IMG/VR virus record: IMGVR_UViG_3300048591_000242 | Span: 138,180 to 202,179 of that record | From: a virus | Taxonomy: Duplodnaviria; Caudoviricetes | Direction: 5' to 3' (one strand) | Length of the DNA stretch: 64,000 nucleotides | Shown here: positions 114 to 61,689 of the stretch, in pieces | Numbering within the stretch: the first letter of the stretch is position 1 | Layout: each line of letters begins with the position of its first letter | Notes under the pieces: generated by a model | What the model saw: only the letters and a program-made list of their open reading frames with translations | What the model was told of the DNA's origin: nothing | Databases searched by the model: none | Program-made: the position numbers and the translations under genes

Positions 114-131
114 ATGTATGCTGTATTTCTT

Positions 132-7697: not shown

Positions 7698-7752
7698 GGT
7701 ATAGACACACAACCACAAAAAGCATGGGAAAAGCCCATGGGAGGATAATAAG

Positions 7753-8386: not shown

Positions 8387-8415
8387 AAAGGGCAAAATTT
8401 TGCCCTTTATTTTTT
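8387..8415 (+). terminator. Rho-independent terminator
   Basis: AAAGGGCAAA/TTTGCCCTTT stem plus T-tract. Confidence 0.7.
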
Positions 8416-11283: not shown

Positions 11284-12063
11284 ATGACTACATTTAAAGC
11301 TATACCCAAGAAAAACGTAACGGATGACCCTAAGTTAGCTCTGTTTGGGGAACCTTGGAGAGAAGGGGATTACAGTAAGAAACCTAGTATGAAGTTGAGA
11401 GTAATCAACTCTACGGGTAATCCAAAATCGGAAGTAAAACAAAGCACAGTCGGTGTTTGGATTACCGTATATTTAAATCATCCAGATGAAAATGATGATG
11501 CAAAGAAAATTGACATCAAAATGGATGCGGTCATATCGTCTACATTTATAGCTGCTATAGAGCGAGCTATAAAGAACCGAGAAGCCACTATGTTGGGTAT
11601 AGATAACATGGGGTATACCTTTGTAGGGGGCAACAAGTCAGATAAGCCCACTAGCCTGGGTAAGGTATTTGTGGGTAGAAACGGTGAGGGAGTATTGTGT
11701 CTGGTGGTAGATGCACCCAATAGACCAAGGGCTTTATTTCCGTTTACACCTACCTTTTGGTGGGCCCTTATTAATAAGAACGGGGATAAAATATCTGCCG
11801 TAGAGGCCTCTGAGTTGGTAGCAGAAGGCTGGGTAGCCATAGTGCGTCCTTTACTAGCTATGGCTGTAAAGGAAACCTACGACGACAAAGAAGCTGCACA
11901 CAGAAAAGCTGAATTGGAGGCAAATCGTAACTCACAAGGCAATAGCGGTGGTTACAGCAAGCCGTATGAGAAGAAGAGCTACGATGACAAAAAGAGCTAT
12001 GAAAAGAAACCGTATAACAACCCAAAGCCAACCACCACAGATGTCTTTGATAGCATTCATTAA
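11284..12063 (+). CDS. chmC: Probable nucleus-associated RNA-binding protein ChmC homologue
   Basis: 259 aa beta-rich domain plus disordered N/G/Y/K tail (EKKSYDDKKSYEKKPY); core-block position upstream of the sigma-like nvRNAP subunit; call rests on synteny. Confidence 0.5.
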   Translation: MTTFKAIPKKNVTDDPKLALFGEPWREGDYSKKPSMKLRVINSTGNPKSEVKQSTVGVWITVYLNHPDENDDAKKIDIKMDAVISSTFIAAIERAIKNREATMLGIDNMGYTFVGGNKSDKPTSLGKVFVGRNGEGVLCLVVDAPNRPRALFPFTPTFWWALINKNGDKISAVEASELVAEGWVAIVRPLLAMAVKETYDDKEAAHRKAELEANRNSQGNSGGYSKPYEKKSYDDKKSYEKKPYNNPKPTTTDVFDSIH

Positions 12064-12071
12064 TTAACTAT

Positions 12072-12103
12072 TTTAGGTAAAGGGCTTAGGCTCTTTACCT
12101 AAA
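12072..12103 (+). terminator. Terminator hairpin followed by TATGCC
   Basis: TTTAGGTAAAGGGC-TTAG-GCTCTTTACCTAAA, TATG at 12105. Confidence 0.75.
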
Positions 12104-12124
12104 GTATGCCTGGAGTACTGTAAA

Positions 12125-13294: not shown

Positions 13295-13304
13295 TATATA
13301 TTAC
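13295..13304 (+). promoter_or_regulatory. Early promoter
   Basis: AGG-TATATATTAC, CAACCAC 12 nt downstream. Confidence 0.75.
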
Positions 13305-13337
13305 CTACATGTAAACCAACCACGCTAGGATGTTATC

Positions 13338-17640: not shown

Positions 17641-17650
17641 TGGCATAAAG

Positions 17651-17681
17651 ATACTCACTCCCACTAAAAGGGAGTGAGTAT
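17651..17681. terminator. Bidirectional terminator between convergent genes
   Basis: ATACTCACTCCC-ACTAAAA-GGGAGTGAGTAT 12-bp stem. Confidence 0.82.
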
Positions 17682-17702: not shown

Positions 17703-18047
17703 TTATAATCTACCACTAGCACTAAGGTGTCTATCCAGAATACCAGTTATGGTGGAAGGTCTAATTATTTTGATTTGCATGTTTGGGTCTAGATAGTCGC
17801 CACTGGAATGTAATTCATTTACTCTTAGAGTTATCCAATGTAAATGCTCTCTTACACCTAGCTCTATAAGTAATCCAGTAAAGTCACCTTTGTATTTACT
17901 GTACTGTCTGCCACTAGGAGTCTCTACTCTTTCTATGCCACTTACACGAATTAAATCTAAATGATCTTCTATTACTTGACGAAATTCAGGACTATGAAAC
18001 TCAACAGGGCCCATATCCCTGGCTGTTCTTATAATAGACATTGTCAT
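17703..18047 (-). CDS. Conserved small protein, possible baseplate wedge (gp53/LysM-like)
   Basis: 114 aa, minus strand between the gp70-like and RNAP genes; HWITLRVN motif; function tentative. Confidence 0.45.
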   Translation of the reverse strand: MTMSIIRTARDMGPVEFHSPEFRQVIEDHLDLIRVSGIERVETPSGRQYSKYKGDFTGLLIELGVREHLHWITLRVNELHSSGDYLDPNMQIKIIRPSTITGILDRHLSASGRL

Positions 18048-18100: not shown

Positions 18101-18110
18101 TATATATTAC
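18101..18110 (+). promoter_or_regulatory. Early promoter
   Basis: TATATATTAC, CAACCAC 12 nt downstream, AGGAG SD. Confidence 0.75.
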
Positions 18111-18142
18111 TTAAATGTAAGACAACCACTATAAAAGGAGAA

Positions 18143-20236
18143 ATGTTCATGGGCAAACGTACCCTAACACTAGAAGAAAGAAAGGTACCCCTAACCAGAA
18201 GAACACATGGCACCATAGCGACTTTATCTAGTACCACTACGTTCGATAGTGCCTCCAGGGTACAAATGGCTAGTGTACAGGCAGGTCAAGCCCTAGTGCC
18301 ACACAAGTCAGATATACCAAGAATGTTACCTGGATTTGAAGATCAGTTAGCCAAATACACTTTTGGCGTAAAAGCACCAGATGATCTTAAGATTGTCTCA
18401 GTAATAAGTAAGTATAGCGGGGGCTTAGGCGCACATGCCATAAAGTCAAACCCCCTCATAACGGTAATTTATGTAAGTCTGAATACTGGGGAATATGGTT
18501 GCTTCCATATAGAGCAATATCAAAACCAGAGTGAGCGAGTACATGAGACTTTTGGCTTCAAATACAAACTTACTCCTAAAGCCAAGAATTTACACGTTAA
18601 CATGTGTTTAGAGAAAGGTGAAGTACTGTCTATCTCTCCCAATGTAGATGAACATGGATGGTACGCCACTGGTATATCAGCTAACGTAGCATACATGTCT
18701 ACTCCAGCTACTACGGAAGACGGATTTGAGATAAGTGATAGTCTATTGGAGAGAGCTAAGCCTACAGCTACTGGTTCTCGTGTAGCAGAATGGGGTAAGA
18801 AGTGTTATCCACTAAACATTTACAATGAGGGCGATGACAAGTATCGCCCTTTCCCAGAGATAGGAGACCCGATTCGTGAGGATGGTCTGGTGTACGCCAT
18901 GCGTGACTATGATGACGTTTTAGCTGGCTTAGACATGACCAACAAGTCTCTTTGTAAGGTGGACTTTGTACACGACGAGTGTGTCTACGGTAAACCAGGG
19001 GCTAAGGTATTTGATATAACTATCTATACTACTACCAATGAAGGTAGACGTAGCCATAACACTCCATCTGGCATGGAAAAGCTTTGTGAGAAATACTCAA
19101 AGCAGCACAGTCAGTATTATGAAAAGATACTGGAGTGCTATGCTAGCATTAAGCGAGTAACTAATGGGGATTTTAAAATAACCCCAGAATTACAAAACTT
19201 AATAGTAAGGGCTAACGGGGACATGCCTAACGTAGTGGTACGTAGACTGGAGGACAAGATACGTAAGAAAAATAGTATTATTAAAACTTGGCGAGCTAAC
19301 CCTATAGATGAGTGGCGAGTAGAGGTGTTCTATGAGTATTTATTCCCTATAGGGGAAGGGGCTAAGTTTAGTAATCGCCATGGAAGTAAGGGGGTTATTT
19401 GTCGAGTCACAAAATCTGAAGATATGCCTGTAGATGCCTTCGGTAACAGAGTAGATATAATTATCTATTCTAAAGGTTCTATCTCCAGACTAAACCCCGG
19501 GCAGTTTTATGAGCACTTCATAAACGCGTGTTCTAGAGACGTCACTCTGGACATAAAGGCCATGATAGGTACTGGTGATAGAAAGGGAGCACTGAAGCAT
19601 CTGTTGGAGTATTTACGCATTGCATCGCCTAGGTCATACGAGTTAATTGACTTTGATAATCAGGAGGAACTGGATGACTTATTGGATAGAGCGTGTAAGT
19701 ATGGTATTTATGTATTCGCGCCCTCTGACGATAAGGATTTAGGCATAGCTACGTTCTTTAAGCTAATGGAGTTTCGACCACCAAATAAATCACAAGTAAC
19801 ATATCGTGATGTATCTGGTAGGTTAGTTACTACAGTAGAACCTATTTTGGTAGGGGAAGAGGACGTTATTGTACTAGATAAGCTAGATCATAAACCGATG
19901 GCTGTATCTGGTATAAGAAGACAACATCATGGTTTCCCTGCTGTAGAGAATAAGAGTACTAAACATAGTACTCCTAGTAAGGAGCAGCCACCTAAGATTA
20001 TCGGTGAGTCTGAGGCTAGGACTGCGGCTGCCGTAATGGGTGGGGATGCAGTATCTGAGTTGTTGGATGTTACTACTAATCCAGAAACACACAGACGTAC
20101 AGCGGCTGCTATATTCGAAGCAGAAAATCCAATGGACATAGCGGATTTGGTTGATAGAGAGAATCCTTCTACTGGTGGTAGAAGTATACAATTTATTAAG
20201 CATGTGCTTAGCTGTGCTGGCTATACGATAAAATAA
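18143..20236 (+). CDS. Non-virion RNA polymerase beta C-terminal subunit (phiKZ gp71-73-like), uninterrupted
   Basis: GAKFSNRHGSKGVI, SRLNPGQFYE and KIIGESE rpoB motifs. Confidence 0.92.
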   Translation: MFMGKRTLTLEERKVPLTRRTHGTIATLSSTTTFDSASRVQMASVQAGQALVPHKSDIPRMLPGFEDQLAKYTFGVKAPDDLKIVSVISKYSGGLGAHAIKSNPLITVIYVSLNTGEYGCFHIEQYQNQSERVHETFGFKYKLTPKAKNLHVNMCLEKGEVLSISPNVDEHGWYATGISANVAYMSTPATTEDGFEISDSLLERAKPTATGSRVAEWGKKCYPLNIYNEGDDKYRPFPEIGDPIREDGLVYAMRDYDDVLAGLDMTNKSLCKVDFVHDECVYGKPGAKVFDITIYTTTNEGRRSHNTPSGMEKLCEKYSKQHSQYYEKILECYASIKRVTNGDFKITPELQNLIVRANGDMPNVVVRRLEDKIRKKNSIIKTWRANPIDEWRVEVFYEYLFPIGEGAKFSNRHGSKGVICRVTKSEDMPVDAFGNRVDIIIYSKGSISRLNPGQFYEHFINACSRDVTLDIKAMIGTGDRKGALKHLLEYLRIASPRSYELIDFDNQEELDDLLDRACKYGIYVFAPSDDKDLGIATFFKLMEFRPPNKSQVTYRDVSGRLVTTVEPILVGEEDVIVLDKLDHKPMAVSGIRRQHHGFPAVENKSTKHSTPSKEQPPKIIGESEARTAAAVMGGDAVSELLDVTTNPETHRRTAAAIFEAENPMDIADLVDRENPSTGGRSIQFIKHVLSCAGYTIK

Positions 20237-20284
20237 ACCATAAACTATCTAGTACTACAGCCATACTTTGGAGACAGTACTAGA

Positions 20285-20294
20285 TATATATTAC
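20285..20294 (+). promoter_or_regulatory. Early promoter
   Basis: AGA-TATATATTAC, CAACCAC 12 nt downstream, AGGAG SD. Confidence 0.75.
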
Positions 20295-20331
20295 CTTTTG
20301 AGTATACAACCACTAGTTAGGAGAAGAATAA

Positions 20332-22305
20332 ATGTCAATACCTAAATATAAGGCAAATGACATAGCCTTAATGTCTGAGGATGAGGTATGGGGTTTACCT
20401 AGGCAGATAGAAATTTTATTTGCAGATAAGGTAAAGTTAGTTACTACATGTAGAAGAACTATTATCAGTTGGTACATGTGGAGACTACATAGGGACTTTC
20501 CTGGGTGTCCTGTATTGAGTACGCATCACATAGGTAACAAGCGATTTGTGAAGCGTAGTGAGCTTAAAAGACTATCGGTTATTTTCTGGGACGTATATGA
20601 GGGTCATCTGGAAAAGCATGAAAATACCGTATGGGAGATGAGTAAAGCTACCTATGAAATAATAAATACCATTCACAACATAACGGTATCTAGACTGAGT
20701 CCTTATGTAACTACTACGGACTTAGCTGATATAGCTGAGATTATGACTCACCCAGTAATAGCTGGAGCTAAACGCAAGGCACAAGAGCGAATAGATGCTA
20801 ATGAGGATGGTTCGGTAGTACTGGCTGAAACCTTTAATGAAATCTTTTCTACGTTGGATGGAGATGACCCTAGCTTACGTAGAAATGGCATAGCCAAAAT
20901 GGTTCGTTGTGGATTGTTAAATAGAAACCAGATTTTACAATTCATAGGGCCTAGGGGATTTGTTAAGTCTACTGACGGTACTATGTATAGTGAGCCTATC
21001 TATGCAGGGTATGCGGATGGGTTAAAGAATCTGTATGACTCTATGACTGAGTCTAGAACTGCATCTTTAGCACTGTATATGAACGAAGGTCCTTTACAGG
21101 ACTCTGAGTACTTTAACAGACAGATGCAGCTTTTAGCAGCAGTTATCTCTGGGGTAGGTCAAGATGACTGTGGTACTCAGCATACCTTGGAGTGGTATGT
21201 AAATGAGAACGACCTAGAAGGGTTAGAGGGCAAGTACCATATAGTAGATGGCAAACCTGTTTTATTCAGTAAGCGGGACAGCCATTATGTAGGTAAGATT
21301 ATTAATCTTAGATCTATTACTAGATGTGCTAATCCAGACCCTACTGTAGTCTGTAAAACCTGTCTAGGATTAGTGCACAGGGTAATACCGCCTAGGACTA
21401 ACGTAGGGCACTTTCTTACAATTGAACCTCTAGCTACCTTGAGTCAGCTTATACTGTCTACAAAGCACGTAGTAGCCAGCGTAGCCTCATTGTATCTAGA
21501 TTTGTCTGGTTTACCGGGTAAATGGTTTAGATATGACTCTCAGAATAAATCCGCTATACGTGTAAAGAAAGCTAATATAGCTAACTCTTACTGTATTCGG
21601 TTTTTAGCTAGTGAGGCTTCTGGTTTAAACAGTATAGCTTCCTGTAGCGATGTATCGTCTTTACCGCCGCAGCGCATAAGTTGTATTACTGGCATACAGA
21701 TAGCTAACGCTGATGTAGACGGTAGTCCTAAGGGAGAATGGGATTCATTTGATACTGTGGTAGGTGGCGTGGGTAGTGCCTTGTCTGGGGATGTGATAGA
21801 AGCCATACAGCGTAATGGCTTTAAAGTAGTAGGGGAGATGATTGAGGTTTTGTTGGATGATTTTAGGGATAAGGTAATTATTATTACTCCTAGAAGAAAC
21901 GAAGATATGATGACTTATCTTAAACAGGTAAAGCATTTTGTATTCGGAGCTGAAAACAAAAACGACAAAGGGGACTCTCTAGTTAGCTATACTAACCCGG
22001 CTTTAGCTGTAGCTTCTTTGAAAAGAATATTTGATGAGAAGATTACAGTTAACGTTATACATGCTGAGATCTTAGTGAGGGCATGTATGACAAGGATAAA
22101 TCCGAATGACAGGTATGGTAACACTGACTACAATTTGCCGGTAGGGGGAGAGGCCTTTAGATTTACTAATGCTAAAGCTATAATTCATAATAGAAGTATA
22201 TCTGCGGCACTAGCATTTCAGGGACAGAAGAACTTACTTACCAATCCACAAACGTTTCTGGTACGAGACAGGCATCCACACCCACTGGATGCCTTTATTT
22301 ATTAA
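20332..22305 (+). CDS. Non-virion RNA polymerase beta' C-terminal subunit (phiKZ gp74-like)
   Basis: QILQFIGPRG, DDCGT, RSITRC...VCKTCLG Zn site, LSQLILSTKH (trigger-loop region). Confidence 0.92.
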   Translation: MSIPKYKANDIALMSEDEVWGLPRQIEILFADKVKLVTTCRRTIISWYMWRLHRDFPGCPVLSTHHIGNKRFVKRSELKRLSVIFWDVYEGHLEKHENTVWEMSKATYEIINTIHNITVSRLSPYVTTTDLADIAEIMTHPVIAGAKRKAQERIDANEDGSVVLAETFNEIFSTLDGDDPSLRRNGIAKMVRCGLLNRNQILQFIGPRGFVKSTDGTMYSEPIYAGYADGLKNLYDSMTESRTASLALYMNEGPLQDSEYFNRQMQLLAAVISGVGQDDCGTQHTLEWYVNENDLEGLEGKYHIVDGKPVLFSKRDSHYVGKIINLRSITRCANPDPTVVCKTCLGLVHRVIPPRTNVGHFLTIEPLATLSQLILSTKHVVASVASLYLDLSGLPGKWFRYDSQNKSAIRVKKANIANSYCIRFLASEASGLNSIASCSDVSSLPPQRISCITGIQIANADVDGSPKGEWDSFDTVVGGVGSALSGDVIEAIQRNGFKVVGEMIEVLLDDFRDKVIIITPRRNEDMMTYLKQVKHFVFGAENKNDKGDSLVSYTNPALAVASLKRIFDEKITVNVIHAEILVRACMTRINPNDRYGNTDYNLPVGGEAFRFTNAKAIIHNRSISAALAFQGQKNLLTNPQTFLVRDRHPHPLDAFIY

Positions 22306-23135: not shown

Positions 23136-23163
23136 CTAGAGAGAGGATAAAACCTCTCTCTAG
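23136..23163 (+). terminator. Terminator hairpin followed by TATGCT
   Basis: CTAGAGAGAGG-ATAAAA-CCTCTCTCTAG. Confidence 0.8.
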
Positions 23164-23222
23164 CTATGCTCTATTTTTTGAATGTAAGTTATGATATGGA
23201 TTCTATTTTTAGGAGAAGTATC

Positions 23223-23588: not shown

Positions 23589-23594
23589 ACGTTC

Positions 23595-23622
23595 TAGGGT
23601 ATGGGTTTAGGCCTGTACTCTA
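23595..23622 (+). terminator. Terminator-like hairpin followed by TATGCTGT
   Basis: TAGGGTATGGGT/GCCTGTACTCTA stem with G-U pairs. Confidence 0.55.
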
Positions 23623-23661
23623 AACGCTATGCTGTAGTTTAAATATTAATCAGGGTAGAGA

Positions 23662-26136
23662 ATGGTATACGGCCCATATATAAAGGCCCTATGCCATTTA
23701 GCGTTCGCAGACATCCAAGGAGTTCCCATGGTACGTTATAAGTTCTCGGTATTTTCACATGGATTTACCGTTAGTCTTTTCTATGTAAACGACAAGCAGG
23801 CTATCCTTGAGTTTAGTAAAGACCTAGCTACATTTGAAGAAATGTGGGTACCCAAGCTACGTAGAAAAATAAGAAAGGTAAAGTCTGTGTTTGCAGCAGC
23901 TAGTATGGATAGAATGGAATATAGTTTTCTTATAGCTGACTTTGTACCTTTAATAAAATTCTTAAAGGAAAGAGGCTATACCGATGCGGATATGTCTATA
24001 TATAAACATAACGCCTCAGAGGGTATGCCTATTGAGATTGAATTGGGGGATGGAGTGGCTCCTAAAGATCAAGAACAAAGAGACGTAGTTGAGTTTATCA
24101 ATAGTCCAGACAAAACCAATATTGTTTTAAATCTAAGAACAGGTGGAGGTAAAGCACAACCTTTAGCTTCTAAGATTAAGATACCGGGTGGTTGGAGTAC
24201 TATGGGTGAGATGGAAGTAGGTAAAATTATAACTGCTCCAGACGGTACCCCCACTAAGGTAACCGGTGTACACCCTCAGGGGTTAAAGGGTTGTTATAAA
24301 TTAACTTTTAGCGACGGTAGAAGTTGTGAGGCTGACGGGGAACATTTATGGCGAGTATATGTGAAGGGAGAAGAACTTACTATAGATACCGCTGAAGTAC
24401 ATGGCTTGGTAGGTACAGGTAACGTACTGACCATACCGCTACCTACATCTGAGCACATATCGGAAGTAGAGTTACCCATGGACCCATATGAGCTAGGAAT
24501 TGGTTTAGGAGCTATGGATAATAACCATAAACTACCTACTGGTATAGTGGATTTAGAGGGATATACTCAGCTAAATGGATTAGCTTATGGCGAATATATC
24601 CCTAAACTATATCTACATGCTTCTACCACACAAAGACTAAATTTAGTACGTGGATTAATGGATGCTTGTGGTCACACTGTAACGGACGGCTCTGTTTACT
24701 TTACCTCCAATACCTATACCCTGGCAAAGAACCTTCAATATTTAGTTAGATCACTAGGAGGTTGTGCTAGCTTAACCACCAATACCACCAACAGGTTTGT
24801 AAGAGGGGCTATAAATAGAACTAGCTCGAGCTATAGGGTCTATGTAGAGTACCCTATTGTCACTGAGTTATATAGTTGTAATAGAAAGAAAACCAACTGT
24901 ATGTCTAGAGGCAAATACTTAAATAAGGTAGAGTGTCGTATAGTGAATGTAGAATACATAGGTAGAAAGGAAACTCAGTGTATCTCTGTAGATCACCCAG
25001 ACAAGCTTTACATTACTGATGACTTTATAGTAACGCATAACACGTTTTTGGGATTAAACTCCATAGCTAACTTTAAAGTACGCACGGCATTGATAATGAA
25101 TGCCGGGCACTTTAAGACATGGCAGGATTCCATGTCGTGGGTATACAAGGACGAAAAAAACTACTGTATAGTTAGGGGTAGAGATAATCTTAAACGGCTT
25201 ATAGAGCTATCTATAGCTGGAGAAAATGAGTATAAGCTTATCTATATCTCCATAGCTACGCTTAGAAAGTATATTACTGACTATCTAGCCACAGGGGAGA
25301 CTATAGAGGGGGTACATCCTAGAGAGTTATTTAGTGTATTAGGGGTAGGTTATCGCATAGTAGATGAGGCACATCAATCTATACATGCGATAGCCATACA
25401 AAACATTTTTACTCACGTAAACAAAACACTTTACTTATCTGCTACTTTAGTAACGGAAGATCCGTTTCTACAGAAACAGTATAAGAAAATGTTTCCTTTA
25501 GAAGATCAGTTTAAGAAAGGAGTAACTAACAAACACGCTCGAGGTATTAGTATTACCTATAGGGTAAAGGATAGGGATAAGATTCGCTGTACAGGGGGTA
25601 AAGGCTATAGTCATGTTGTTTATGAACATTGGATTATGTCAAATAAACAAAGACTTAGTAATTACATAGAGATGATAGAAAGTATTTTAACTGAATCATT
25701 CATAAGTGTAAGGGAAGGGAAACAAAAGGCACTTATCTTCTGCAGCACCACTGAGTTATGTAAGATAGTGGCAGATCAGCTAAGAATAAGTTATGGTGAT
25801 AGATTTACCATATCAGATTACGTAGCCAGTCACGATCCGTCTGTACTACACGACAACGATATAGTGGTATCTACACCACTATCGGCAGGTACTGGTGTAG
25901 ATATAGAAGACCTAAGAGTAGCCATATCTACTGTAGCCGTAAGATCCATTCAGCTTAACCAGCAGATGGCCGGGCGATTACGTCCGCTACGTAATCATCC
26001 AAATGTAACACCGGATTACATCTGGCTAAACTGTGGAGATATACCACAGCACTTGCAGTATAACTCAGCTAAGATGGAGCAGTTAGGAAACCATACCAAA
26101 GAGATTAAGTATACCTTTTATAACACTGAAATATAA
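23662..26136 (+). CDS. SF2 DEAD/H-like helicase (phiKZ gp75-like) containing an intein
   Basis: Walker A TGGGK|T split by the intein, VDEAH, LSAT, GTGVD and QMAGRLR motifs. Confidence 0.9.
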   Translation: MVYGPYIKALCHLAFADIQGVPMVRYKFSVFSHGFTVSLFYVNDKQAILEFSKDLATFEEMWVPKLRRKIRKVKSVFAAASMDRMEYSFLIADFVPLIKFLKERGYTDADMSIYKHNASEGMPIEIELGDGVAPKDQEQRDVVEFINSPDKTNIVLNLRTGGGKAQPLASKIKIPGGWSTMGEMEVGKIITAPDGTPTKVTGVHPQGLKGCYKLTFSDGRSCEADGEHLWRVYVKGEELTIDTAEVHGLVGTGNVLTIPLPTSEHISEVELPMDPYELGIGLGAMDNNHKLPTGIVDLEGYTQLNGLAYGEYIPKLYLHASTTQRLNLVRGLMDACGHTVTDGSVYFTSNTYTLAKNLQYLVRSLGGCASLTTNTTNRFVRGAINRTSSSYRVYVEYPIVTELYSCNRKKTNCMSRGKYLNKVECRIVNVEYIGRKETQCISVDHPDKLYITDDFIVTHNTFLGLNSIANFKVRTALIMNAGHFKTWQDSMSWVYKDEKNYCIVRGRDNLKRLIELSIAGENEYKLIYISIATLRKYITDYLATGETIEGVHPRELFSVLGVGYRIVDEAHQSIHAIAIQNIFTHVNKTLYLSATLVTEDPFLQKQYKKMFPLEDQFKKGVTNKHARGISITYRVKDRDKIRCTGGKGYSHVVYEHWIMSNKQRLSNYIEMIESILTESFISVREGKQKALIFCSTTELCKIVADQLRISYGDRFTISDYVASHDPSVLHDNDIVVSTPLSAGTGVDIEDLRVAISTVAVRSIQLNQQMAGRLRPLRNHPNVTPDYIWLNCGDIPQHLQYNSAKMEQLGNHTKEIKYTFYNTEI
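24154..25041 (+). mobile_element. Class 3 intein (296 aa) with LAGLIDADG-type endonuclease remnant
   Basis: Starts AQPL (Ala1), block B GEHLW, block F TQCISV, block G IVTHN followed by Thr+1; W-C-T signature; RGLMDACG motif. Confidence 0.9.
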
Positions 26137-26140
26137 ACCC

Positions 26141-26166
26141 AGGACTAGGGGATATCCTCTAGTCCT
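26141..26166 (+). terminator. Terminator hairpin followed by TATGCTGT
   Basis: AGGACTAGGGG/CTCTAGTCCT stem then TTTTATGCTGT. Confidence 0.75.
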
Positions 26167-26193
26167 TTTATGCTGTATATTGGAGAATTAATT

Positions 26194-30666: not shown

Positions 30667-30698
30667 CTATACACTCTAGGTTGTCCTAGAGTGTATAG
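30667..30698 (+). terminator. Terminator hairpin followed by TATGCT
   Basis: CTATACACTCTAGG-TTGT-CCTAGAGTGTATAG 14-bp stem. Confidence 0.8.
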
Positions 30699-30729
30699 CC
30701 TTATGCTTCTATTCAATTTTTTTTTCAAA

Positions 30730-31149: not shown

Positions 31150-31509
31150 ATGGAAACTAAGTTATCTAAACTAAAAGTAATACTGGAAATAGGGGCTACA
31201 GGTGAACCCATAGGTGCTATGCTATCTGAGGGTATACTGGTACGTAAGGTAGAGACAGAGCAAGACACATACATAGCTGCTTATCCAGACGGACTATGTA
31301 AGGTAGTCCTACAGGAAGACGGTCACTACAAAAGTACCCTAGTACTGTCTAAGCCTTTCTCATTCTGCTGGAATACGCATTTCGGTGTAACAGTAGCAGA
31401 AGTAGAAAACGATATGGCTGACGTACGGTATCTATATACCGGTATAATCTTTAAGTCTGAGATAGGAGACAGACTACGAGAATTAATGGAGTCTAAATAT
31501 GCAGCATAA
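31150..31509 (+). CDS. Hypothetical protein, tandem paralogue 2
   Basis: LSEGILV...YPDGLC motif; AAGGA SD. Confidence 0.65.
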   Translation: METKLSKLKVILEIGATGEPIGAMLSEGILVRKVETEQDTYIAAYPDGLCKVVLQEDGHYKSTLVLSKPFSFCWNTHFGVTVAEVENDMADVRYLYTGIIFKSEIGDRLRELMESKYAA

Positions 31510-31934
31510 AACATTACTCTCAGATTTCGGTCTGAGAGTATTTTCTATATTCTTTATTTTTTGTAAAAAAATCCTAGTAATAAAATACTGGCTAGGAGTT
31601 ATATGGACATCAGTTTTTCAGAATTATTTTTCACGTAAACATTGAATGCAATGATGTCGGTTTATTCGTCGGGGCCTTACGCCCCCTCCTCATAAACCTC
31701 CCCTCTTTTTACAAATCATCAGTAAACTGAATTAATTTTTACTAAATTTTGATATGTATGAACATAGTTTTTTAACATAAAAATGAGGTACAAAGTAACT
31801 CATTTTCTATACTAAAAATGTAAGTTTAAATTAAAATATTTTAATAGTATATTTTACCTTTAGTTTAGGTTACTAAACTAAAACAGAGGCAGTATGTTAG
31901 TTAACTATTCTAAACCTTTAAAACAATTAAGCTT

Positions 31935-31994
31935 CTCTTATTCTCACTAAGCAATAACGTGAGTGAGAATAAATAACGTGAGTGAGAATAAGAG
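31935..31994. repeat. 19-bp tandem direct repeat with an overlapping 14-bp inverted repeat
   Basis: AATAACGTGAGTGAGAATA x2 (31953-31990); CTCTTATTCTCACT (31935-48) is the reverse complement of 31981-94. Confidence 0.85.
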
Positions 31995-32279
31995 AGTATA
32001 TGTTTGTTTTACTGCAAAAAGAGAAAAGACTAGTTTTGATTTATATCTAGCCTTATACTTCTACCTGATCTTTAGCGTATGCTTATACTAAAGCGACTAG
32101 CGCTACACAAATTGGATTAGGGCCGTTTTCTGAAACCATATATTAAACCAGTATAAACGTAAACGAGAAGGCTCCTAATCTTCTTATAGAGAGCATATTG
32201 GCTATGTACCTATACAAAGGTATAGGTAAAATAAACTAAGCTTGTATGGGCTTACAATTAGCTTTAAGAAACATTCAGA

Positions 32280-32289
32280 TATATATCAC
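32280..32289 (+). promoter_or_regulatory. Early promoter
   Basis: AGA-TATATATCAC. Confidence 0.7.
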
Positions 32290-32351
32290 TTTTATAGAAG
32301 AAGACAATACCTGTCTTTACCTAATAGGGTTTTAAACCCAGGAGATTTAAT

Positions 32352-33374: not shown

Positions 33375-33387
33375 TGCTGTAGTTAGA

Positions 33388-33417
33388 ATAAGAGGGGCTT
33401 CCCTCTTATTTTTTTTA
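33388..33417 (+). terminator. Rho-independent terminator
   Basis: ATAAGAGGG-GCTT-CCCTCTTAT plus T-tract. Confidence 0.8.
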
Positions 33418-34309: not shown

Positions 34310-34339
34310 TATACCCTAGGGCCAGTGCCCTAGGGTATA
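34310..34339 (+). terminator. Terminator hairpin followed by TATGCCGT
   Basis: TATACCCTAGGG-CCAGTG-CCCTAGGGTATA. Confidence 0.8.
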
Positions 34340-34420
34340 TATGCCGTTATTTTTTAATTAATTAAAGTATTTAGTTAAATTATGAATCTTAATAAAAACG
34401 TAAGAAAGGAATATACTAAA

Positions 34421-35170: not shown

Positions 35171-35422
35171 ATGTCTAAGTTAAACCCTAATGAGGTAGAG
35201 GTTGTTAAATTTGGTACAGTAGTAGTTGAAAACAAATATGATCTTCTACGTACCATGTTAAATGACGTACTTGTAGAGCTTAATAAAATACCATCTAATG
35301 AGCAAAGAGAAGAGATTGGTATCAAGTTAGCTGGCGGTATAATTACCTTAAGTAAAAACCCAACCCTAAGAACCTTTCCGGCTTTTGAGAAAATAGTAGA
35401 CGCTAAGGTTATTATTAAATAA
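35171..35422 (+). CDS. Small hypothetical protein
   Basis: 83 aa, GGAG SD, followed by a terminator. Confidence 0.65.
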   Translation: MSKLNPNEVEVVKFGTVVVENKYDLLRTMLNDVLVELNKIPSNEQREEIGIKLAGGIITLSKNPTLRTFPAFEKIVDAKVIIK

Positions 35423-35434
35423 AGCATAAAGCAC

Positions 35435-35465
35435 AGCTAGACTAGGGGATTCCCCTAGTCTAGCT
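35435..35465. terminator. Bidirectional terminator
   Basis: AGCTAGACTAGGGG-ATT-CCCCTAGTCTAGCT 14-bp stem between convergent genes. Confidence 0.85.
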
Positions 35466-35475: not shown

Positions 35476-35955
35476 TTACATTCTATTACCTAAAGCACTC
35501 ATCAGCCCTTCCAAATCATCCATCTCGTTCATCTCTGTAGTAGTAAGTGCCCTACAGGAATTAACTACAATCTTAAAGGTTTCGGTGGGCAGGTTCATAA
35601 GCTCTAATAAAGACATGTTGGTTTTTTGAGGAACCTTATACTTTAATAGCATTCTTATTTGATTTGCTCCGGTAGAATGTTTAATGTTAGAAGAAAACTC
35701 GTTGTGTGTGGCCAGGGGATACGGATTGTTAGGATCTGTATTATCGTGGTCATATACATCGAGTATAGTCTCTATACGCTCTATAGAAAGCATTCTGTCT
35801 AGAACACCACTGTGGGTATTAGGGTGTTCTAATAAGCCCTTTAATAAAGCCAGTCTTTGTTTTTCAGTGGGACTATAGGCTGGCGATATAATTGGTTTTA
35901 CAGTATAGGGCTTTACAGTGCCATCTGGGCTGTAGCGATTCGTCCCAATCGCCAC
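35476..35955 (-). CDS. Conserved protein, probable baseplate assembly partner
   Basis: Overlaps the upstream 509 aa gene; LLELMNLP motif; function by analogy only. Confidence 0.4.
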   Translation of the reverse strand: MAIGTNRYSPDGTVKPYTVKPIISPAYSPTEKQRLALLKGLLEHPNTHSGVLDRMLSIERIETILDVYDHDNTDPNNPYPLATHNEFSSNIKHSTGANQIRMLLKYKVPQKTNMSLLELMNLPTETFKIVVNSCRALTTTEMNEMDDLEGLMSALGNRM

Positions 35956-37973: not shown

Positions 37974-38786
37974 ATGGTACCGCAAACTCTAATAGACATA
38001 TCTTCATTTACACCAGCCACTGAACTTAGTCTATATGTAGATATAGAAAAAACATTGTTTAAGCTTAACTATACTGATCACCTGGTAGGACTGGATAACT
38101 CTGTAGGCGGAGAGAGTTTAACTAGCAATGACATTATAGCTAACATCCGCTCCGTCTATACCGAGACACTGGAAGATGTTTTAGAGCAACACGGCATTTT
38201 ACTAAACGAAGAAGAAACCGTACCCCTTAGATTTATGCTAGCTCTGGTAGACGCTATATTAGTATTAGCCGATGGCGACATAGCGGACATAGTAGCCTCT
38301 ATAGATCTAGAAGAGGCAGACGATTTGACTATTTTAGGTACCTTAATTACTGAGGTGAGTGAATTGGATCTGGGAGATATTTACAAATATCTATCTGAGG
38401 TGGACTCTGGTTTAATTAAAAAGATAGCCGCTTCCGTGGTAATAGAGGAAGACTCGTCTAATTCTGATTACTACAAACAAAGGTATTTGGCTTATGTAGG
38501 GGAAAGGCGACATGGAGTGGTAAAAGACTTTATATCCAAAAGAGGCACCCTACCTTTAGACTTTATTTTCTCAGTAACTGCACTAAAGGACAAGCTTTCT
38601 GAAATAACTGATATAGAGGAGTTAGCCTTTGAGTACATTTCACTGTTTAATGCCTCAGATTTAAACACAGAAGACTTCGTATCGGTAGGCTTAAAAGCAA
38701 TAGAAGACAGCACTGAGGTATCCTTATTTATACCGCTGTCAAACAGAATTACTACATATGTAAGGGAGCTAACAAATGGCCAGTAA
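37974..38786 (+). CDS. Conserved acidic protein, probable virion protein
   Basis: 270 aa, overlaps the vRNAP subunit gene, phiKZ-like order. Confidence 0.55.
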   Translation: MVPQTLIDISSFTPATELSLYVDIEKTLFKLNYTDHLVGLDNSVGGESLTSNDIIANIRSVYTETLEDVLEQHGILLNEEETVPLRFMLALVDAILVLADGDIADIVASIDLEEADDLTILGTLITEVSELDLGDIYKYLSEVDSGLIKKIAASVVIEEDSSNSDYYKQRYLAYVGERRHGVVKDFISKRGTLPLDFIFSVTALKDKLSEITDIEELAFEYISLFNASDLNTEDFVSVGLKAIEDSTEVSLFIPLSNRITTYVRELTNGQ

Positions 38787-40050
38787 GTATGAGTATTTTA
38801 AGTTAGCACACTCTTTAGGTTGCACTAAGGAGAGATATTGGGTAATGAGAGTATTCTCCATGCCCACTACTACTAGAAAGCATAGCCATTCTTTAGACAC
38901 CCCTGGCTATATTTTCTATAATGAACTAGAAGTGCCTTTGTTTATAAATGCAGAGGGTAAGCCGGAAACTATAGATGACTATAAACCAGGTGAGCCTATA
39001 TACGGCATAAAGGAAAAAGTAGTTATTTCTAAGGGCGACTTTACTATAGCCGATAGCGATTACGATAGTTTTTATAGTACACTCTACTTAAACCTTATTC
39101 TGCTGGAATACGCGTTTGGTAATATCTTCCCATATCACAATGGCAAATTTAGCGCCAAACAGTTAGATACTTTAATCGGTGCCGCTCTTAAAAACGGTAC
39201 TATTACAGTAGCTCAATATCGTGAATACTCCAAGACCTTAGGTTTTATAACGTGTCTTTCTACCGTAGCACTACCTGCCGCTTCTAGGAAGTCCATTATA
39301 CCCCCGGCCGATATTACCAAAATACGAGATAAGTTACTGGCTGAACATAAAGAACAGTTAGATGATCCTGTAGTAGTGGCTAAGATAGAAAAGCAGTTGG
39401 TGGATATTTACAAAGACTATATAAAAGGTGATATTTCAGAAGGTTTCTTCTTAGACGAAAAGATTTATTCGGTAGTACTTAAGAAGTCATACATAATGCT
39501 TGGCTCTGAACCTAAGTTAGAAGATCCGAATAAGATTAACTTATCGGTTACTTCTCTTAAAGAGGGCTGGCAGGTTAAGGACTTACCCATGATAGCTAAC
39601 TCACTTAGAATGGGGTCGTATAACCGAGGGGCTGCTACTGCTTTAGGCGGTGAGGCAGCTAAGTTTTCTAGTCGTATATACCAGAATACTAAACTTATAC
39701 CTGGGGACTGCGGCTCTACTGTAGGCATACCGGTAAATGTAAACAAGTATAACGTTGACTCATTTAACGGCAGAGCTATGCTTGTAAACGGAAAGCCAGT
39801 TTACCTAAATAAAGGTGACCTAGCTAAGCACTTAGGTAAAACCGTATACATGCGTTCCCCACAAACATGTAATACACCTAGCGGTGATTTTTGTGAGGTG
39901 TGTATGGGCAAGGAGGTAACTGAGGTAGGCTTAGGCTTAGGCCCACAGGCGTCTGCGGTAGGCAGTGTGTTCCTGTCGCAATCGTTAGCAGCTATGCATG
40001 GTACGAGTCTTTCTTTAGAGCCTATAGACCTAGAAAATTCAATGGATTAA
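38776..40050 (+). CDS. Virion RNA polymerase beta' subunit fragment (phiKZ gp80-like)
   Basis: GDCGS, RSPQTC...FCEVCMG Zn site, SQSLAAMHG, GGEAAK bridge-helix-like region. Confidence 0.88.
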   Translation: MASKYEYFKLAHSLGCTKERYWVMRVFSMPTTTRKHSHSLDTPGYIFYNELEVPLFINAEGKPETIDDYKPGEPIYGIKEKVVISKGDFTIADSDYDSFYSTLYLNLILLEYAFGNIFPYHNGKFSAKQLDTLIGAALKNGTITVAQYREYSKTLGFITCLSTVALPAASRKSIIPPADITKIRDKLLAEHKEQLDDPVVVAKIEKQLVDIYKDYIKGDISEGFFLDEKIYSVVLKKSYIMLGSEPKLEDPNKINLSVTSLKEGWQVKDLPMIANSLRMGSYNRGAATALGGEAAKFSSRIYQNTKLIPGDCGSTVGIPVNVNKYNVDSFNGRAMLVNGKPVYLNKGDLAKHLGKTVYMRSPQTCNTPSGDFCEVCMGKEVTEVGLGLGPQASAVGSVFLSQSLAAMHGTSLSLEPIDLENSMD

Positions 40051-40642: not shown

Positions 40643-40972
40643 ATGCTTTTAAAATTAATCGACAACACTAAGAACTCCATGAAAACCATGTTAGAAATAT
40701 CAGTACCCGGTAGAGTCTATAGAAAGGTAATGGACTTTATGACACCCGGTGAGTTTCTGATAGACTCTGAAGAAACCTTTGTTAAGTTAGAATATGTACC
40801 AGAGGCTGATTTGGATAGTCTGCGTAATGACATAGAGGACTACATAGACCTCGAGTATACCAGAATCAAACGTGGTAAAGGAAGTGATGTCGTATTAGAA
40901 GCGTTGGCTGAGTTATATGACATGTTGGTGGAGATTAAAGATACTGGTAAAACAGTATTACTTACAAACTAA
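40643..40972 (+). CDS. Hypothetical acidic protein
   Basis: 109 aa followed by a terminator. Confidence 0.6.
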   Translation: MLLKLIDNTKNSMKTMLEISVPGRVYRKVMDFMTPGEFLIDSEETFVKLEYVPEADLDSLRNDIEDYIDLEYTRIKRGKGSDVVLEALAELYDMLVEIKDTGKTVLLTN

Positions 40973-40988
40973 ATAAGCGGCATAAAAG

Positions 40989-41016
40989 CTATACTGTCCC
41001 TTGTGGGACAGTATAG
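40989..41016. terminator. Bidirectional terminator flanked by TATGCCG on both strands
   Basis: CTATACTGTCCC-TTGT-GGGACAGTATAG. Confidence 0.85.
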
Positions 41017-41030
41017 TACTTATGCCGTAA

Positions 41031-41645
41031 TTAACCTACGTTATAGGCAATACGTAGACGACGCATAATGGTTTCGCTACGAGTAGGAGACATGAAGCGC
41101 CCCATGCCACTCCAGTCGAGCTTCTTAATTTCGTTACCACGTGTAGAAGGATCTGCTGTATTTTCAAATAAAGCCAGTAAAGATTCGATTTCACGACGGT
41201 CTTCTTTGCTATTCCATGGAGTAACATCATAGAAACGGAACAAAGAACGAATGCTGAAAACACCAGTTTTGTCGTTGTGAATGAAGTTCAGGATTTCTTT
41301 AATGTTAGCTACAGCTTTAGTTTCATCTGCATCTGTAACTGCATTAATGATGGCCGCCCTGAAAGCCTTCTGATGCTTAGCACCTGTACGCGCATCTGTA
41401 GGCTTATTAGGAGCCATAGACTCTGCGTATGTTCTTAAAGCACGACCGATTACAGTATCGCTGGTAGCTTCTTCTTTAATTACTGGTACTGGTGTAGGCT
41501 CTGGGGCAGGAACCGGTTGTACTTCTGGCTCAGCCGCAGGTTCAGTAGCTACATTGGCTTCTGCAGTAACCGTCTCTTCTTGGGTAGCTACAGGCTCCGT
41601 TACAGTAGCCGGTTTAGTTGTAGCTTGTGAGTTTTTCTTAGCCAT
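41031..41645 (-). CDS. Conserved protein with T/E/P/A-rich disordered N-terminus
   Basis: GGAG SD before ATG 41645 (track start 41660); PAPEPTPVPV linker. Confidence 0.65.
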   Translation of the reverse strand: MAKKNSQATTKPATVTEPVATQEETVTAEANVATEPAAEPEVQPVPAPEPTPVPVIKEEATSDTVIGRALRTYAESMAPNKPTDARTGAKHQKAFRAAIINAVTDADETKAVANIKEILNFIHNDKTGVFSIRSLFRFYDVTPWNSKEDRREIESLLALFENTADPSTRGNEIKKLDWSGMGRFMSPTRSETIMRRLRIAYNVG

Positions 41646-41729
41646 CTTTATTATCTCCAAACATAATTTATGTTAGTTTATTGGTATATGATACACAGCG
41701 GTACCGTGTAGTGCAAAGGGGGTAGTTGC

Positions 41730-45602: not shown

Positions 45603-46815
45603 GTATTTTGTAGAAACTGAGTCGGTGCTAGCAAAGATAGCTGAAACTGATATGTTGGTAAGTAACCTACACTGTGTTTACAAATCGGCTCTAGCGGATG
45701 GAGTGAATAGAGATTTGGCTCTATCGCTGGAGTCGATTTGCCCTGAAGCTATACCGAAAGGTCTTTTAGTTCAGTCGTATACGGAGGCTAAATCTACTAC
45801 TAATCTAAATGTTACTTTAGAGGGCATTCTAGTTAGTATAAAGGAAGCTATAGTCAATGTACTAACCTATGTGTATGATGCCATTTTAAAGGCTATACGG
45901 GCCATTATAAAGTTCTTTAGTAAGGAAACTAGTGGTAATGGCAGTCAGTCTCCTAAGGCTATAGCTACAGTGGTGGAGGCGGTAGAGGCTAATACTAAAT
46001 CAGTTAAGGTAGGTAGATTTAAGGTATCTGTTTCTACTGCTACCTATGAAAACAAAAATCACGCCATGCGGTATATAGAAAACGAATACAAGCATCTTAC
46101 CACAAATAAGCAGGCACTTCGGCTATTCAAAGAGACTACTGATCTAATGGTGCTTATTACAAGTCGAATGGATTCCGCTATAGACAATCTTTCTGTTTAC
46201 TCAGAAGAGGAGTATAGTAAGGACAAGTTTGATAAGGTTTTTATGGAGGCCTATACTGGACTCAGAAAACCCATAGAAAAGCTATGGAATTCTGCTCCGA
46301 TAATGGATCTATATAGAACCACAACTAACTATTTCTATACGGTTGGTTTAGATAAAGCTATAAAGCTTCCCCCGGTATCTCCTAAAGATACTGACGTGCC
46401 TAATAATCGCAGAATGCCGCATTCATTATCCATAATGGAGCGCAGAAGGATAATGCTTGCCGGAATGCGAGATACGGCTACCGTCAATAAAGTATCTGTA
46501 AAAGAAATGTTTGAAATGGCGGAACACGGCCTAGATGTAGAATCTTATCCACATGCAATAGCGGATATAGTTAGTCTTTTTGAATCTTTAGAGGGAAGAA
46601 TAGAGAAATCAAAAAATAGCCTTATAAAGAACCGAAGTAAAATTGTTAATAGAAATCCTTTAGTAGCAGAACATCGTGAGTTGATTATGGAAAGTGCCAG
46701 ATATATGGTAATGTTCGGCAGATATCAGGAAGTAACTATTACCATGATGCGTATAGTGCAACATGAGAAGAGAAAGATTCTAGATAACTACAACAACTCC
46801 ATGGTGCCTGCATAA
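45586..46815 (+). CDS. Internal head protein with cleavage site
   Basis: SLE and TLE|GILVSIKEAIV pattern shared with the other head paralogues. Confidence 0.65.
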   Translation: MEQLPEYFVETESVLAKIAETDMLVSNLHCVYKSALADGVNRDLALSLESICPEAIPKGLLVQSYTEAKSTTNLNVTLEGILVSIKEAIVNVLTYVYDAILKAIRAIIKFFSKETSGNGSQSPKAIATVVEAVEANTKSVKVGRFKVSVSTATYENKNHAMRYIENEYKHLTTNKQALRLFKETTDLMVLITSRMDSAIDNLSVYSEEEYSKDKFDKVFMEAYTGLRKPIEKLWNSAPIMDLYRTTTNYFYTVGLDKAIKLPPVSPKDTDVPNNRRMPHSLSIMERRRIMLAGMRDTATVNKVSVKEMFEMAEHGLDVESYPHAIADIVSLFESLEGRIEKSKNSLIKNRSKIVNRNPLVAEHRELIMESARYMVMFGRYQEVTITMMRIVQHEKRKILDNYNNSMVPA

Positions 46816-46819
46816 GGCA

Positions 46820-46851
46820 TACAGACTGTCCCAGCTAAGGGACAGTCTGTA
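46820..46851. terminator. Bidirectional terminator flanked by TATGCC on both strands
   Basis: TACAGACTGTCCC-AGCTAA-GGGACAGTCTGTA. Confidence 0.85.
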
Positions 46852-46863
46852 CTTATGCCGTAT

Positions 46864-54833: not shown

Positions 54834-54870
54834 AAAAACCAGTGGCTTCGGTCACTGGTTTTTTTTTATT
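54834..54870 (+). terminator. Rho-independent terminator
   Basis: AAAAACCAGTGGC-TTCG-GTCACTGGTTTTT plus T-tract. Confidence 0.85.
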
Positions 54871-56475: not shown

Positions 56476-56506
56476 TAGAAACAGGGAAAACCCTGTTTCT
56501 ACTTTT
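56476..56506 (+). terminator. Terminator hairpin followed by TATGCAGT
   Basis: TAGAAACAGGG-AAAA-CCCTGTTTCTA. Confidence 0.8.
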
Positions 56507-56623
56507 ATGCAGTTTTTAGTAAATAAAATAAAAGAGTAATCCCTGTTTTTTTATGCCGTATAAAGGGATTGTATATTAAAGTAATGTAATTACATAGGTA
56601 AATTTATTTAGGAGAATAGGCTT

Positions 56624-60271: not shown

Positions 60272-61633
60272 GTGAGTATTTCAAACGCTAGTACATTTGC
60301 TGAGCTAATGGAACTTAACAAATATCCGGTAGCTCTAGTAAACTGGAAGATAGAAGCAAAGCTTATTGTAAAGGGTGAGACAATAGGTATAGCTAATGTA
60401 GTGGCTTATCGAAAGTTTGCTGACTACGAGAAGAAATATTACGCAGATATGTTTCTTACTATAGAGGTAGACCCTATTGCTCATAGAGCCATACTGGGTA
60501 ATTTAAATAACGTACAGATCTCAATAACCAAGGCATTGCAGTCTGCAGACGGTATTTATACCACTGGTTTACGTAGAGTGAGTCAGATATTTAATGCCTA
60601 TTTAACCGATGCCACTAACAGTAACCTAATGTCAGTAAGTGGCTCTGGTAAGTTAAAGGGAGATAGCGTAGAGCAAATTAGTACTCTACGCTCACTGTCA
60701 TTTCAGCTAATAGAGCCTGTAGTAGCGGACATGCGTTTAGCTGAAACTGGAGGTATATATAAATCTACTACTCTGGAAAACGTACTACGGGTAACTCTAG
60801 GTTATGGTTTAGGAGAAGAACCTAAACCAGATCTATGGAAAGAGCCTTCTTATACCGGTATAAGGGGGGTAGATGTAATTACACCAAACAACAACACCGT
60901 ATATCAGCATATCGTTATACCTAATGGTACTAGACTAGTAAATATACCTAAATTTCTACAAGAGGAATACGGTATATATAGTAGTGGTTTGGGCTGGCAA
61001 ATTGAAGACGGCAGATGTTATTTATACCCATTGTTAAACTACAATGAGTACGACAAAAGACATGTAGTCTTAACTATACTAAATGTACCTACCGATGAAA
61101 TTCCTACAATGGAGAGAACCTTTATTTTAAGAGATAAGGAGATTTATATATTTGCTACTGGTGAAACTAAACATCTAGATATATCGGAAAACGTACAAAC
61201 CAACATGGGAAATGGGATACGCTTTAGTACCTCTAGAGATCTATTAGATGGAATGGTAGTTACCTCTGAGAATATATCCAAGTTAAGCTCTAAGGAAAAC
61301 GTCAAGTCCATGCTTTTAAGTGAAAGACCGAATGGTAAGAACAACATTAGGTTTGTAAAAGATAGATTTACCGACAACCCGTATAAGGATACCAGTGCCC
61401 TTACTATGGGACTAGGCACTAGAATAAGGGTAAACTGGGACAACTCTGACCCTAGTCTGTTATATCCTGGTATGCAGGTTAAGTTTTTGTATAAGGATGC
61501 TGGATTAATAAAGGAAATGAAAGGGGTACTTATAGGGCTGGAAGTAATAACCTCGCCTTCTACTGGTTCTATTTTAGACAACCACTATATAACCCAATCA
61601 GTATTAACTCTACAGATAAACAAAGTAGGCTAA
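60272..61633 (+). CDS. Baseplate hub-like virion protein (T4 gp27-type, phiKZ gp101-like)
   Basis: 453 aa, YGIYSSGLG, LLYPGMQVKF; directly convergent with DnaB as in phiKZ-like phages. Confidence 0.55.
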   Translation: MSISNASTFAELMELNKYPVALVNWKIEAKLIVKGETIGIANVVAYRKFADYEKKYYADMFLTIEVDPIAHRAILGNLNNVQISITKALQSADGIYTTGLRRVSQIFNAYLTDATNSNLMSVSGSGKLKGDSVEQISTLRSLSFQLIEPVVADMRLAETGGIYKSTTLENVLRVTLGYGLGEEPKPDLWKEPSYTGIRGVDVITPNNNTVYQHIVIPNGTRLVNIPKFLQEEYGIYSSGLGWQIEDGRCYLYPLLNYNEYDKRHVVLTILNVPTDEIPTMERTFILRDKEIYIFATGETKHLDISENVQTNMGNGIRFSTSRDLLDGMVVTSENISKLSSKENVKSMLLSERPNGKNNIRFVKDRFTDNPYKDTSALTMGLGTRIRVNWDNSDPSLLYPGMQVKFLYKDAGLIKEMKGVLIGLEVITSPSTGSILDNHYITQSVLTLQINKVG

Positions 61634-61644
61634 ACGGCATAAAT

Positions 61645-61675
61645 CTACAGGTACTCCTAACCGGAGTACCTGTAG
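61645..61675. terminator. Bidirectional terminator
   Basis: CTACAGGTACTCC-TAACC-GGAGTACCTGTAG. Confidence 0.85.
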
Positions 61676-61689
61676 TCTATGTCTGTTAT

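Follow-up and report, generated by a model that had tools for sequence, protein, structure and literature searches.

Terminators and late promoters of phiKZ-like phages

ONT-cappable-seq of phiKZ revealed 61 terminators with a common design, in which TTAT comes after a stem-loop (Putzeys et al. 2024, PMC10914365). Their motif was written BCCYCCCCHWWDGGGRRGGBYTTATKYYGT, that is, a hairpin followed by TTATKYYGT, and ARNold classed the elements as intrinsic terminators (PMC10914365). Six of the seven bidirectional terminator regions in the same study are those of phiKZ, each located between a convergent gene pair (PMC10914365). For 201phi2-1, a motif A (n = 59) was described that resembles the phiKZ motif; where it co-occurs with a motif B, a longer hairpin results, and eight terminators of this phage proved functional when assayed in a Pseudomonas chlororaphis terminator trap (PMC11512511). 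The word TATG is absent from the text of both terminator-motif papers (PMC10914365, PMC11512511).

TATG has been described as a start signal. Initiation by the nvRNAP of phiKZ requires TATG with the G at position +1 (PMC4666361), in agreement with the original prediction, which had named TATG as the established late promoter of this enzyme. The β-like subunit GP123 reads the word on the non-template strand; this reading needs an already open strand, the sigma-like subunit stays integral to the complex, and the pocket is, according to the authors, incomplete in the transcribing complex (PMC12809450). Another phage strategy is represented by the class II terminators of T7 RNAP, a single-subunit polymerase, which need no hairpin (bioRxiv 10.64898/2026.02.12.705533).

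We analysed a stretch of 64,000 nucleotides (the window), which corresponds to bases 138180-202179 of a single IMG/VR contig of 202,179 bp with 40% GC. It encodes a chimallin-type nuclear shell protein (phrog_4795; window 1768-3681) and split RNA-polymerase β- and β′-like subunits (window 18143-22305 and 38776-40050). Also encoded are a DNA polymerase of family B and a helicase of the DnaB type. Because of these four features, the source of the window is, judging by its gene content, a phiKZ-like, nucleus-forming jumbo phage (Chimalliviridae), i.e., one that encodes chimallin and whose multisubunit RNA polymerases are split. A megablast search of phage sequences gave no match to the phage, and its DNA polymerase shares at most 44% identity with any phage record (tblastn) and at most 40% with any IMG/VR contig, indicating that it has no close relative in these collections. 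The same searches accordingly gave no close relatives for a test of compensatory changes at orthologous junctions.

Anatomy and distribution of the hairpin and its tail

The convergent ORFs 40643-40972 (+) and 41031-41660 (-) are separated by a 58-nt spacer between their stop codons, which contains a hairpin (40989-41016) with a perfect 12-bp stem (CTATACTGTCCC / GGGACAGTATAG) and a 4-nt loop. On the plus strand, the tail TATGCCGTA (41021-41029) serves gene 40643-40972, and on the minus strand, the tail TATGCCGCT (40976-40984) serves gene 41031-41660; both start 4 nt past the stem. The minus-strand tail is the reverse complement of the plus-strand tail. Pairing between them can therefore form an outer stem, which gives the segment 40977-41028 a two-tier hairpin fold (-37.6 kcal/mol, z = -10). 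The same two-sided architecture is found at the convergent gp153/gp154 junction of phiKZ.

The original prediction had placed the motif on both sides of the hairpins at three convergent junctions (84-113, 40989-41016 and 46820-46851), and this description was correct. At the first, the module spans 70-125, with tails at 70-78 (-) and 117-125 (+); at the third, it spans 46806-46862, again with tails on both strands. A further convergent junction (61633-61686) carries a hairpin at 61645-61675 with a TATGCCGTT tail on the minus side and, on the plus side, a TATGTCTGT variant of the TATGT type. Two further modules serve minus-strand genes: the one at 17639-17681 (-), 3′ of ORF 17703-18047 at a convergent junction, has merely a degenerate TTATCGCT on its plus side, and the one at 35420-35465 (-), 3′ of ORF 35476-35955, has a T-tract instead of TATGC on its plus flank.

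One-sided modules on the plus strand were observed at 12072-12113, 3′ of ORF 11284-12063 and with the next start codon 20 nt past TATG; at 23136-23173 and 56476-56514, both at co-directional junctions; at 23590-23636, with an imperfect stem (-17.8 kcal/mol) and the tail at 23628; at 26141-26177, 3′ of the 824-aa ORF 23662-26136; at 30667-30710, with a promoter-like box, TATATATCAC, about 35 nt further on; and at 34310-34348, where the tail begins right at the stem end. An orphan module at 31500-31542 has its tail on the minus strand and no called minus-strand gene upstream. Overall, all 16 sites that had been listed proved to have a stable hairpin, with TATGC following at a distance of 0-7 nt.

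A stretch of 840 nt (window 31510-32350) has no called gene and several hairpins. This stretch includes an exact 19-nt tandem duplication (31953-31990) and a perfect 15-nt inverted repeat (31934-31948 / 31981-31995). Neither an Rfam search at gathering scores nor a tRNA scan gave a match in the window, this stretch included. It could hold small RNAs or small ORFs.

Enrichment of the motif was evaluated in two ways. Against dinucleotide shuffles, TATGCYG occurred 28 times in the window versus 14.7 ± 4.0, and none of 100 shuffles reached 28. In addition, we collected all the strong hairpins of the 202,179-bp genome, 63 in total with 126 flanks, and tallied each 5-mer within the adjoining 14 nt. 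As the hairpins were enumerated first and the 5-mers counted after, this test is free of conditioning on the motif. Across the whole genome, the top 5-mer in these flanks was TATGC, present in 38 flanks compared to 1.9 expected from the genome k-mer frequency, a 20-fold enrichment.

The position of TATGC relative to the stem is similarly constrained. In the genome, 50 of 507 TATGC sites have a stem with a score of at least 9 ending no more than 8 nt upstream, and all but one of these lie outside ORFs. The 50 nt upstream of TATGC have a mean fold energy of -16.6 kcal/mol at non-coding sites versus -7.7 kcal/mol at coding sites. Of the TATGC found within 70 nt of a stem, 44 of 50 begin at -3 to +7 relative to it (mode +4), and the tail typically sets in 2-5 nt past the stem.

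Alignment of 44 non-redundant modules yielded the consensus (T)TATGC(T/C)GT(A/T)TTT, in which the C at +2 occurs in all 44 as a consequence of the search definition; TATGT variants exist. This anatomy matches that of the phiKZ class, a stable stem-loop directly followed by a TTAT(G/T)YYGT tail. Stems are 11-14 bp long and mostly close on 4-nt loops, with a TA-rich base and a CC-loop-GG top, and their sequence varies between sites while pairing is retained. One-sided modules do not have a 5′ GCATA, which indicates that the tail is a sequence signal and more than an extension of the stem.

That many of these hairpins lack a U-tract was borne out: the longest T run in the 9 nt past the stem is at most 3 in 40 of the 44 modules, and the U-tract of canonical intrinsic terminators is not found directly after the stem. 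The first 8 nt past the stem contain on average 3.8 T, a T-rich stretch (5.8 T per 12 nt) lies 3′ of the tail, and the G of TATG is located at a median of 7 nt past the stem. Separately, in a minority of the hairpins at gene ends the stem runs directly into a classical T-tract instead of TATGC, e.g., at window 8387-8408, 33385-33412 and 54834-54863, all on the plus strand. Hence, the phage has two terminator designs.

The module closely resembles the phiKZ terminator, as in both TTATG(C/T)(C/T)GT comes 2-4 nt after a stem-loop that lies just past the gene end, one hairpin is common to two opposed tails at convergent genes, and the phage has its own multisubunit RNA polymerases. It differs from phiKZ in its longer stems (11-14 bp) of mixed composition, compared to the short CCYCCCC/GGGRRGG of phiKZ, and in a tail that is stricter at +2 (C, by search definition) and then T-rich; the modules described here are known from sequence, whereas those of phiKZ come from mapped RNA ends. 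The likeness to 201phi2-1 lies in motif A, which resembles the phiKZ motif, and in the complementary tails, which lengthen the hairpin as A and B together do; host and stem sequences differ, and the 201phi2-1 motifs were compared by their published description.

Our rescan of phiKZ (150 kb) found TTATG in 25 hairpin flanks versus 3.1 expected, typically as TTATG(T/C)(C/T)GT. The top 4-mer in hairpin flanks was TATG or TTAT in phiKZ, 201phi2-1, Burkholderia phage FLC9 (57% GC) and Erwinia phage SNUABM_54, and also in two Vibrio phages and one IMG/VR contig. No 4-mer stood out in the hairpin flanks of the control, Bacillus phage AR9, which has a polymerase with a different promoter. The Vibrio phages, which are the closest by DNA polymerase, mostly have a TTAT(T) tail without the G, and this weakens a strict TATG requirement.

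Strand logic of the modules

Each oriented hairpin flank was scored for a same-strand gene ending upstream and for a same-strand gene starting downstream. Where a same-strand gene ended upstream, 35 of 59 flanks carried the motif; where none did, 2 of 41 carried it. Separated by class, it occurred on 26 of 39 flanks with an upstream gene end only, on 9 of 20 with both an upstream end and a downstream start, on none of the three with a downstream start only, and on 2 of 38 with neither. A downstream same-strand gene thus does not raise the motif frequency (9/20 vs 26/39).

A census of gene junctions, in which the module was defined as TATG[CT] plus hairpin, was consistent with this result. The module was found at 18 of 21 convergent junctions, 12 of them two-sided on one hairpin. 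At co-directional junctions it was oriented in the sense direction only in 21 cases, antisense only in 3 and both ways in 7. Thirteen of the 17 divergent junctions had no module, and in the other four it is mostly a weak TATGT site. Accordingly, the module sits downstream of genes on the sense strand, takes a bidirectional form between convergent genes, and does not occupy the place of a phiKZ late promoter, upstream of and pointing into a same-strand gene. Its presence at gene ends and its absence from most divergent junctions suggest that the motif is placed where a transcript must end, not where it must begin. A few cases do not follow the called genes: in the symmetric modules at genome 2178/2210 and 103367/103405, a tail lies on a strand without a called gene upstream.

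The occurrence of the motif on both strands at convergent junctions is explained by each gene needing its own stop, with the opposed terminators sharing one palindromic hairpin. The complementary tails that extend the stem are a geometric by-product of this arrangement and not a sign of antisense promoters.

At about 12 of 28 co-directional modules, a separate promoter-like box, TATATAT(T/C)AC, follows 17-66 nt later; nine were found by pattern, and the remaining three are the TATATATCAC variant, spotted by eye. A module followed by a separate box is the arrangement expected of a terminator and a distinct promoter. Further TATATAT(T/C)AC boxes occur at window 1287 and 30139, and across the genome. 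Outside the window, genome 2210-2260 and 123135-123185 share about 50 nt, in which a terminator tail is followed by TTTTAGATTCAA..TTTATTCAGATATATATTAAAGTAATAG; judged from the sequence, a cassette of terminator plus promoter seems to have been duplicated. The TATATTAAAGTAAT box occurs a third time at window 56572.

A different promoter-like element was also noted on the plus strand. The bipartite box TATATTAC-N12-CAACCAC occurs four times with identical spacing versus 0.01 expected (window 7690-7716, 13297-13323, 18103-18129 and 20287-20313), each time 40-130 nt upstream of a plus-strand gene, including two adjacent RNA-polymerase subunit genes. Since TATATTAC is the early-promoter word of phiKZ, the box is probably an early promoter with a shared leader.

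The original prediction had offered two alternatives, namely that every terminator doubles as a late promoter, giving systematic antisense RNA into the opposing gene, or that hairpin plus TATGC is a termination or processing signal specific to the phage polymerase. The second was supported, as the module fits sense-strand gene 3′ ends. The first was not supported, because the occurrence of the motif is unrelated to gene starts downstream of it, most divergent junctions lack it although promoters are needed there, and separate boxes follow it at about 12 of 28 co-directional modules.

Read as a dual element, the module would end the upstream transcript while its TATG also served as a late-promoter initiator with the G as +1. 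The polymerase would then re-initiate at the tail, making antisense RNA into the opposing gene at convergent junctions. The tail does share its four letters with the phiKZ late promoter, in which TATG with the G as +1 is required by nvRNAP (PMC4666361) and is read by GP123 on the non-template strand (PMC12809450). Moreover, the phage encodes a GP123 homologue outside the window (genome 5681-7276; 27% overall identity) whose TATG pocket is largely conserved: of its 16 named residues, nine are kept (S144, R156, K158, N186, H331, S334, Y399, S402 and Q466), and three more are aromatic-for-aromatic swaps (F151Y, H185F and Y406F). Some genes also start very close to a tail. At the co-directional junctions 12105, 23165, 23628 and 26169, the gap between tail and next start codon is only 20-35 nt, with no other promoter box between. 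As this leaves no room for another promoter, these genes need either read-through or initiation at TATG, and the tail may have a dual role at some sites.

The distribution of the motif argues against such a dual role. Whereas phiKZ late promoters lie upstream of genes, the tail lies downstream of them and often faces a convergent gene, with 25 of 44 modules directed at the 3′ end of one, and it is mostly missing where genes diverge. In addition, the phiKZ reference promoter p119L is located at a divergent junction, has no hairpin and continues into a different downstream sequence that does not carry the CYGT extension. Taken together with the RNA ends described below, we consider it unlikely that the tail is also an initiator.

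Two related ideas were rejected. An N4-type hairpin-dependent promoter disagrees with the strand logic. The ATG of the tail might also act as a start codon, and mechanical ORF calls at 23166 and 26170 begin there; these are probably tail artefacts, because at 26170 a GGAG ribosome-binding site and a better-placed ATG follow about 20 nt downstream.

RNA ends in a relative and the termination mechanism

To relate the tail to transcript ends, contigs of four RNA runs were placed on L014, a phiKZ-like IMG/VR locus with a gp153/gp154-type junction. In nanopore cDNA contigs, loose poly-T ends, which are the oligo-dT side of the library, abut L014 2364, 2365 and 2367 at the convergent hairpin. These positions are inside the minus-strand tail TTATGTC (T2369-A-T-G-T-C2364), 5-8 nt past the stem. 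Poly(A)-tailed RNA 3′ ends therefore fall inside the tail at a phiKZ-like convergent hairpin, which is supporting evidence and not proof of termination. The ends come from few assembled contigs of one run, and exonuclease trimming back to the hairpin could also yield them, so that a causal role of the tail itself in termination does not follow from them.

The same locus provided an internal control. Three loose ends that carry the strand-switch primer, and so mark 5′ ends, fall exactly on the G of TATG (L014 +1326, +5632 and -3357), which is the published start of late promoters (PMC4666361). Like p119L, these three sites have neither an upstream hairpin nor the CYGT extension, and no 5′ end at a terminator-tail TATG was found among the loose ends listed for the nanopore cDNA run. 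That these start sites have no hairpin and no extension speaks against a dual role of the tail. The 5′ end at L014 1326 (+) lies inside a long ORF, suggesting an internal late promoter.

Together, the strand logic, the match to the phiKZ and 201phi2-1 motifs obtained from mapped 3′ ends, and the tailed 3′ ends in the L014 tail make it probable, with good confidence on our part, that hairpin + (T)TATGC(Y)GT is the standard transcription terminator of this phage and belongs to the phiKZ-type class of nucleus-forming jumbo phages. That class is already published for phiKZ, and the finding is real but mostly ordinary; our observations concern the anatomy of the module, its strand logic, its family-wide conservation and the 3′ ends inside the tail of a relative.

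Another possibility is that the module acts on RNA stability or processing. The polymerase would read through, and the 3′ ends would be generated by exonuclease trimming or by cleavage in the single-stranded UUAUGC tail, a site for a nuclease or an RNA-binding protein. It is known that 3′-to-5′ exonucleases also leave ends 5-8 nt past a stable stem, long-read 3′-end mapping cannot separate termination from processing, and the tail shows a sequence conservation that a plain intrinsic terminator would not require. Nevertheless, when tested between two reporters in uninfected cells, the 201phi2-1 elements stopped expression of the downstream one, which fits true termination (PMC11512511), the phiKZ elements are intrinsic terminators according to ARNold (PMC10914365), and no candidate nuclease or binding protein is known. 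RNA-level processing as the function of the module is thus quite improbable.

A palindromic repeat family (REP- or MITE-like) or a composition artefact, in which the tail has no transcriptional role, is strongly disfavoured: although a few stems are near-identical, e.g., TACACTAGTACCC at genome 9732 and 105657, and the intergenic cassettes at genome 2210 and 123135 are paralogous, most stems differ and yet keep their pairing, the tail is strand-specific relative to gene ends and conserved across phages of 37 to 57% GC with unrelated stems, and the enrichment is 20-fold above the genome's own k-mer frequency.

Returning to the terminator reading, the phage's own multisubunit RNA polymerase would transcribe the 11-14 bp stem-loop just past the stop codon. 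The tail, which replaces the U-tract, would then provide a weak A/U-rich hybrid (UUAU) and a pause-prone step with a pyrimidine at -1 and G at +1. The consensus pause of bacterial polymerases is G-10 Y-1 G+1, and UAU|G resembles it in having a pyrimidine at -1 and G at +1. Given that the G lies at a median of 7 nt past the stem, a polymerase held at U-1/G+1 would have a short A/U-rich hybrid at the distance at which, as established for intrinsic termination, a terminator hairpin acts on bacterial enzymes. The RNA 3′ end would come to lie about 5-8 nt past the stem, where the hairpin can strip the transcript. For a convergent gene pair, a single palindromic hairpin would serve both genes, with each strand providing its own tail. 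We infer that the tail acts during termination by pausing, through DNA or RNA.

In common with bacterial intrinsic terminators, the module places a stable hairpin at gene ends, and RNA 3′ ends lie a few nucleotides past the stem in both bacterial and phiKZ-type elements; phiKZ-type elements are predicted by ARNold, and those of 201phi2-1 work with the bacterial polymerase. Unlike bacterial intrinsic terminators, a conserved mixed-sequence tail stands in place of the U-tract. As in T7 class II terminators, a short specific sequence would contribute to stopping the polymerase; unlike these, a hairpin is present and the pause at the tail is a proposed one.

How the polymerase might recognise the tail leads back to TATG. 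It is possible, and we suggest this tentatively, that the word is read by the same GP123-type pocket on the non-template strand both at promoters, as the start site, and behind hairpins, as a pause. The reasoning is that the pocket needs an open strand and that an elongating enzyme meets an open TATG at the tail. An elongating enzyme with its sigma-like subunit would capture TATG in the open bubble and pause with the RNA end at U-1; the hairpin would then release the transcript without a U-tract, and the polymerase might pass straight to initiation. The incomplete pocket in the transcribing complex (PMC12809450) and the Vibrio-phage tails, which often have no G, count against this idea.

In practical terms, for a jumbo phage without a close sequenced relative the module is a reliable annotation mark that shows where genes end, on which strand they lie and where operons are bounded. 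Very distant Chimalliviridae share the terminator design of phiKZ, even though their stems are unrelated and their GC contents range from 37 to 57%. The intriguing thread is the presence, within the terminator tail, of TATG, the word at which the polymerase itself initiates; if the shared reading of this word is true, it would constitute a start/stop code specific to Chimalliviridae polymerases.
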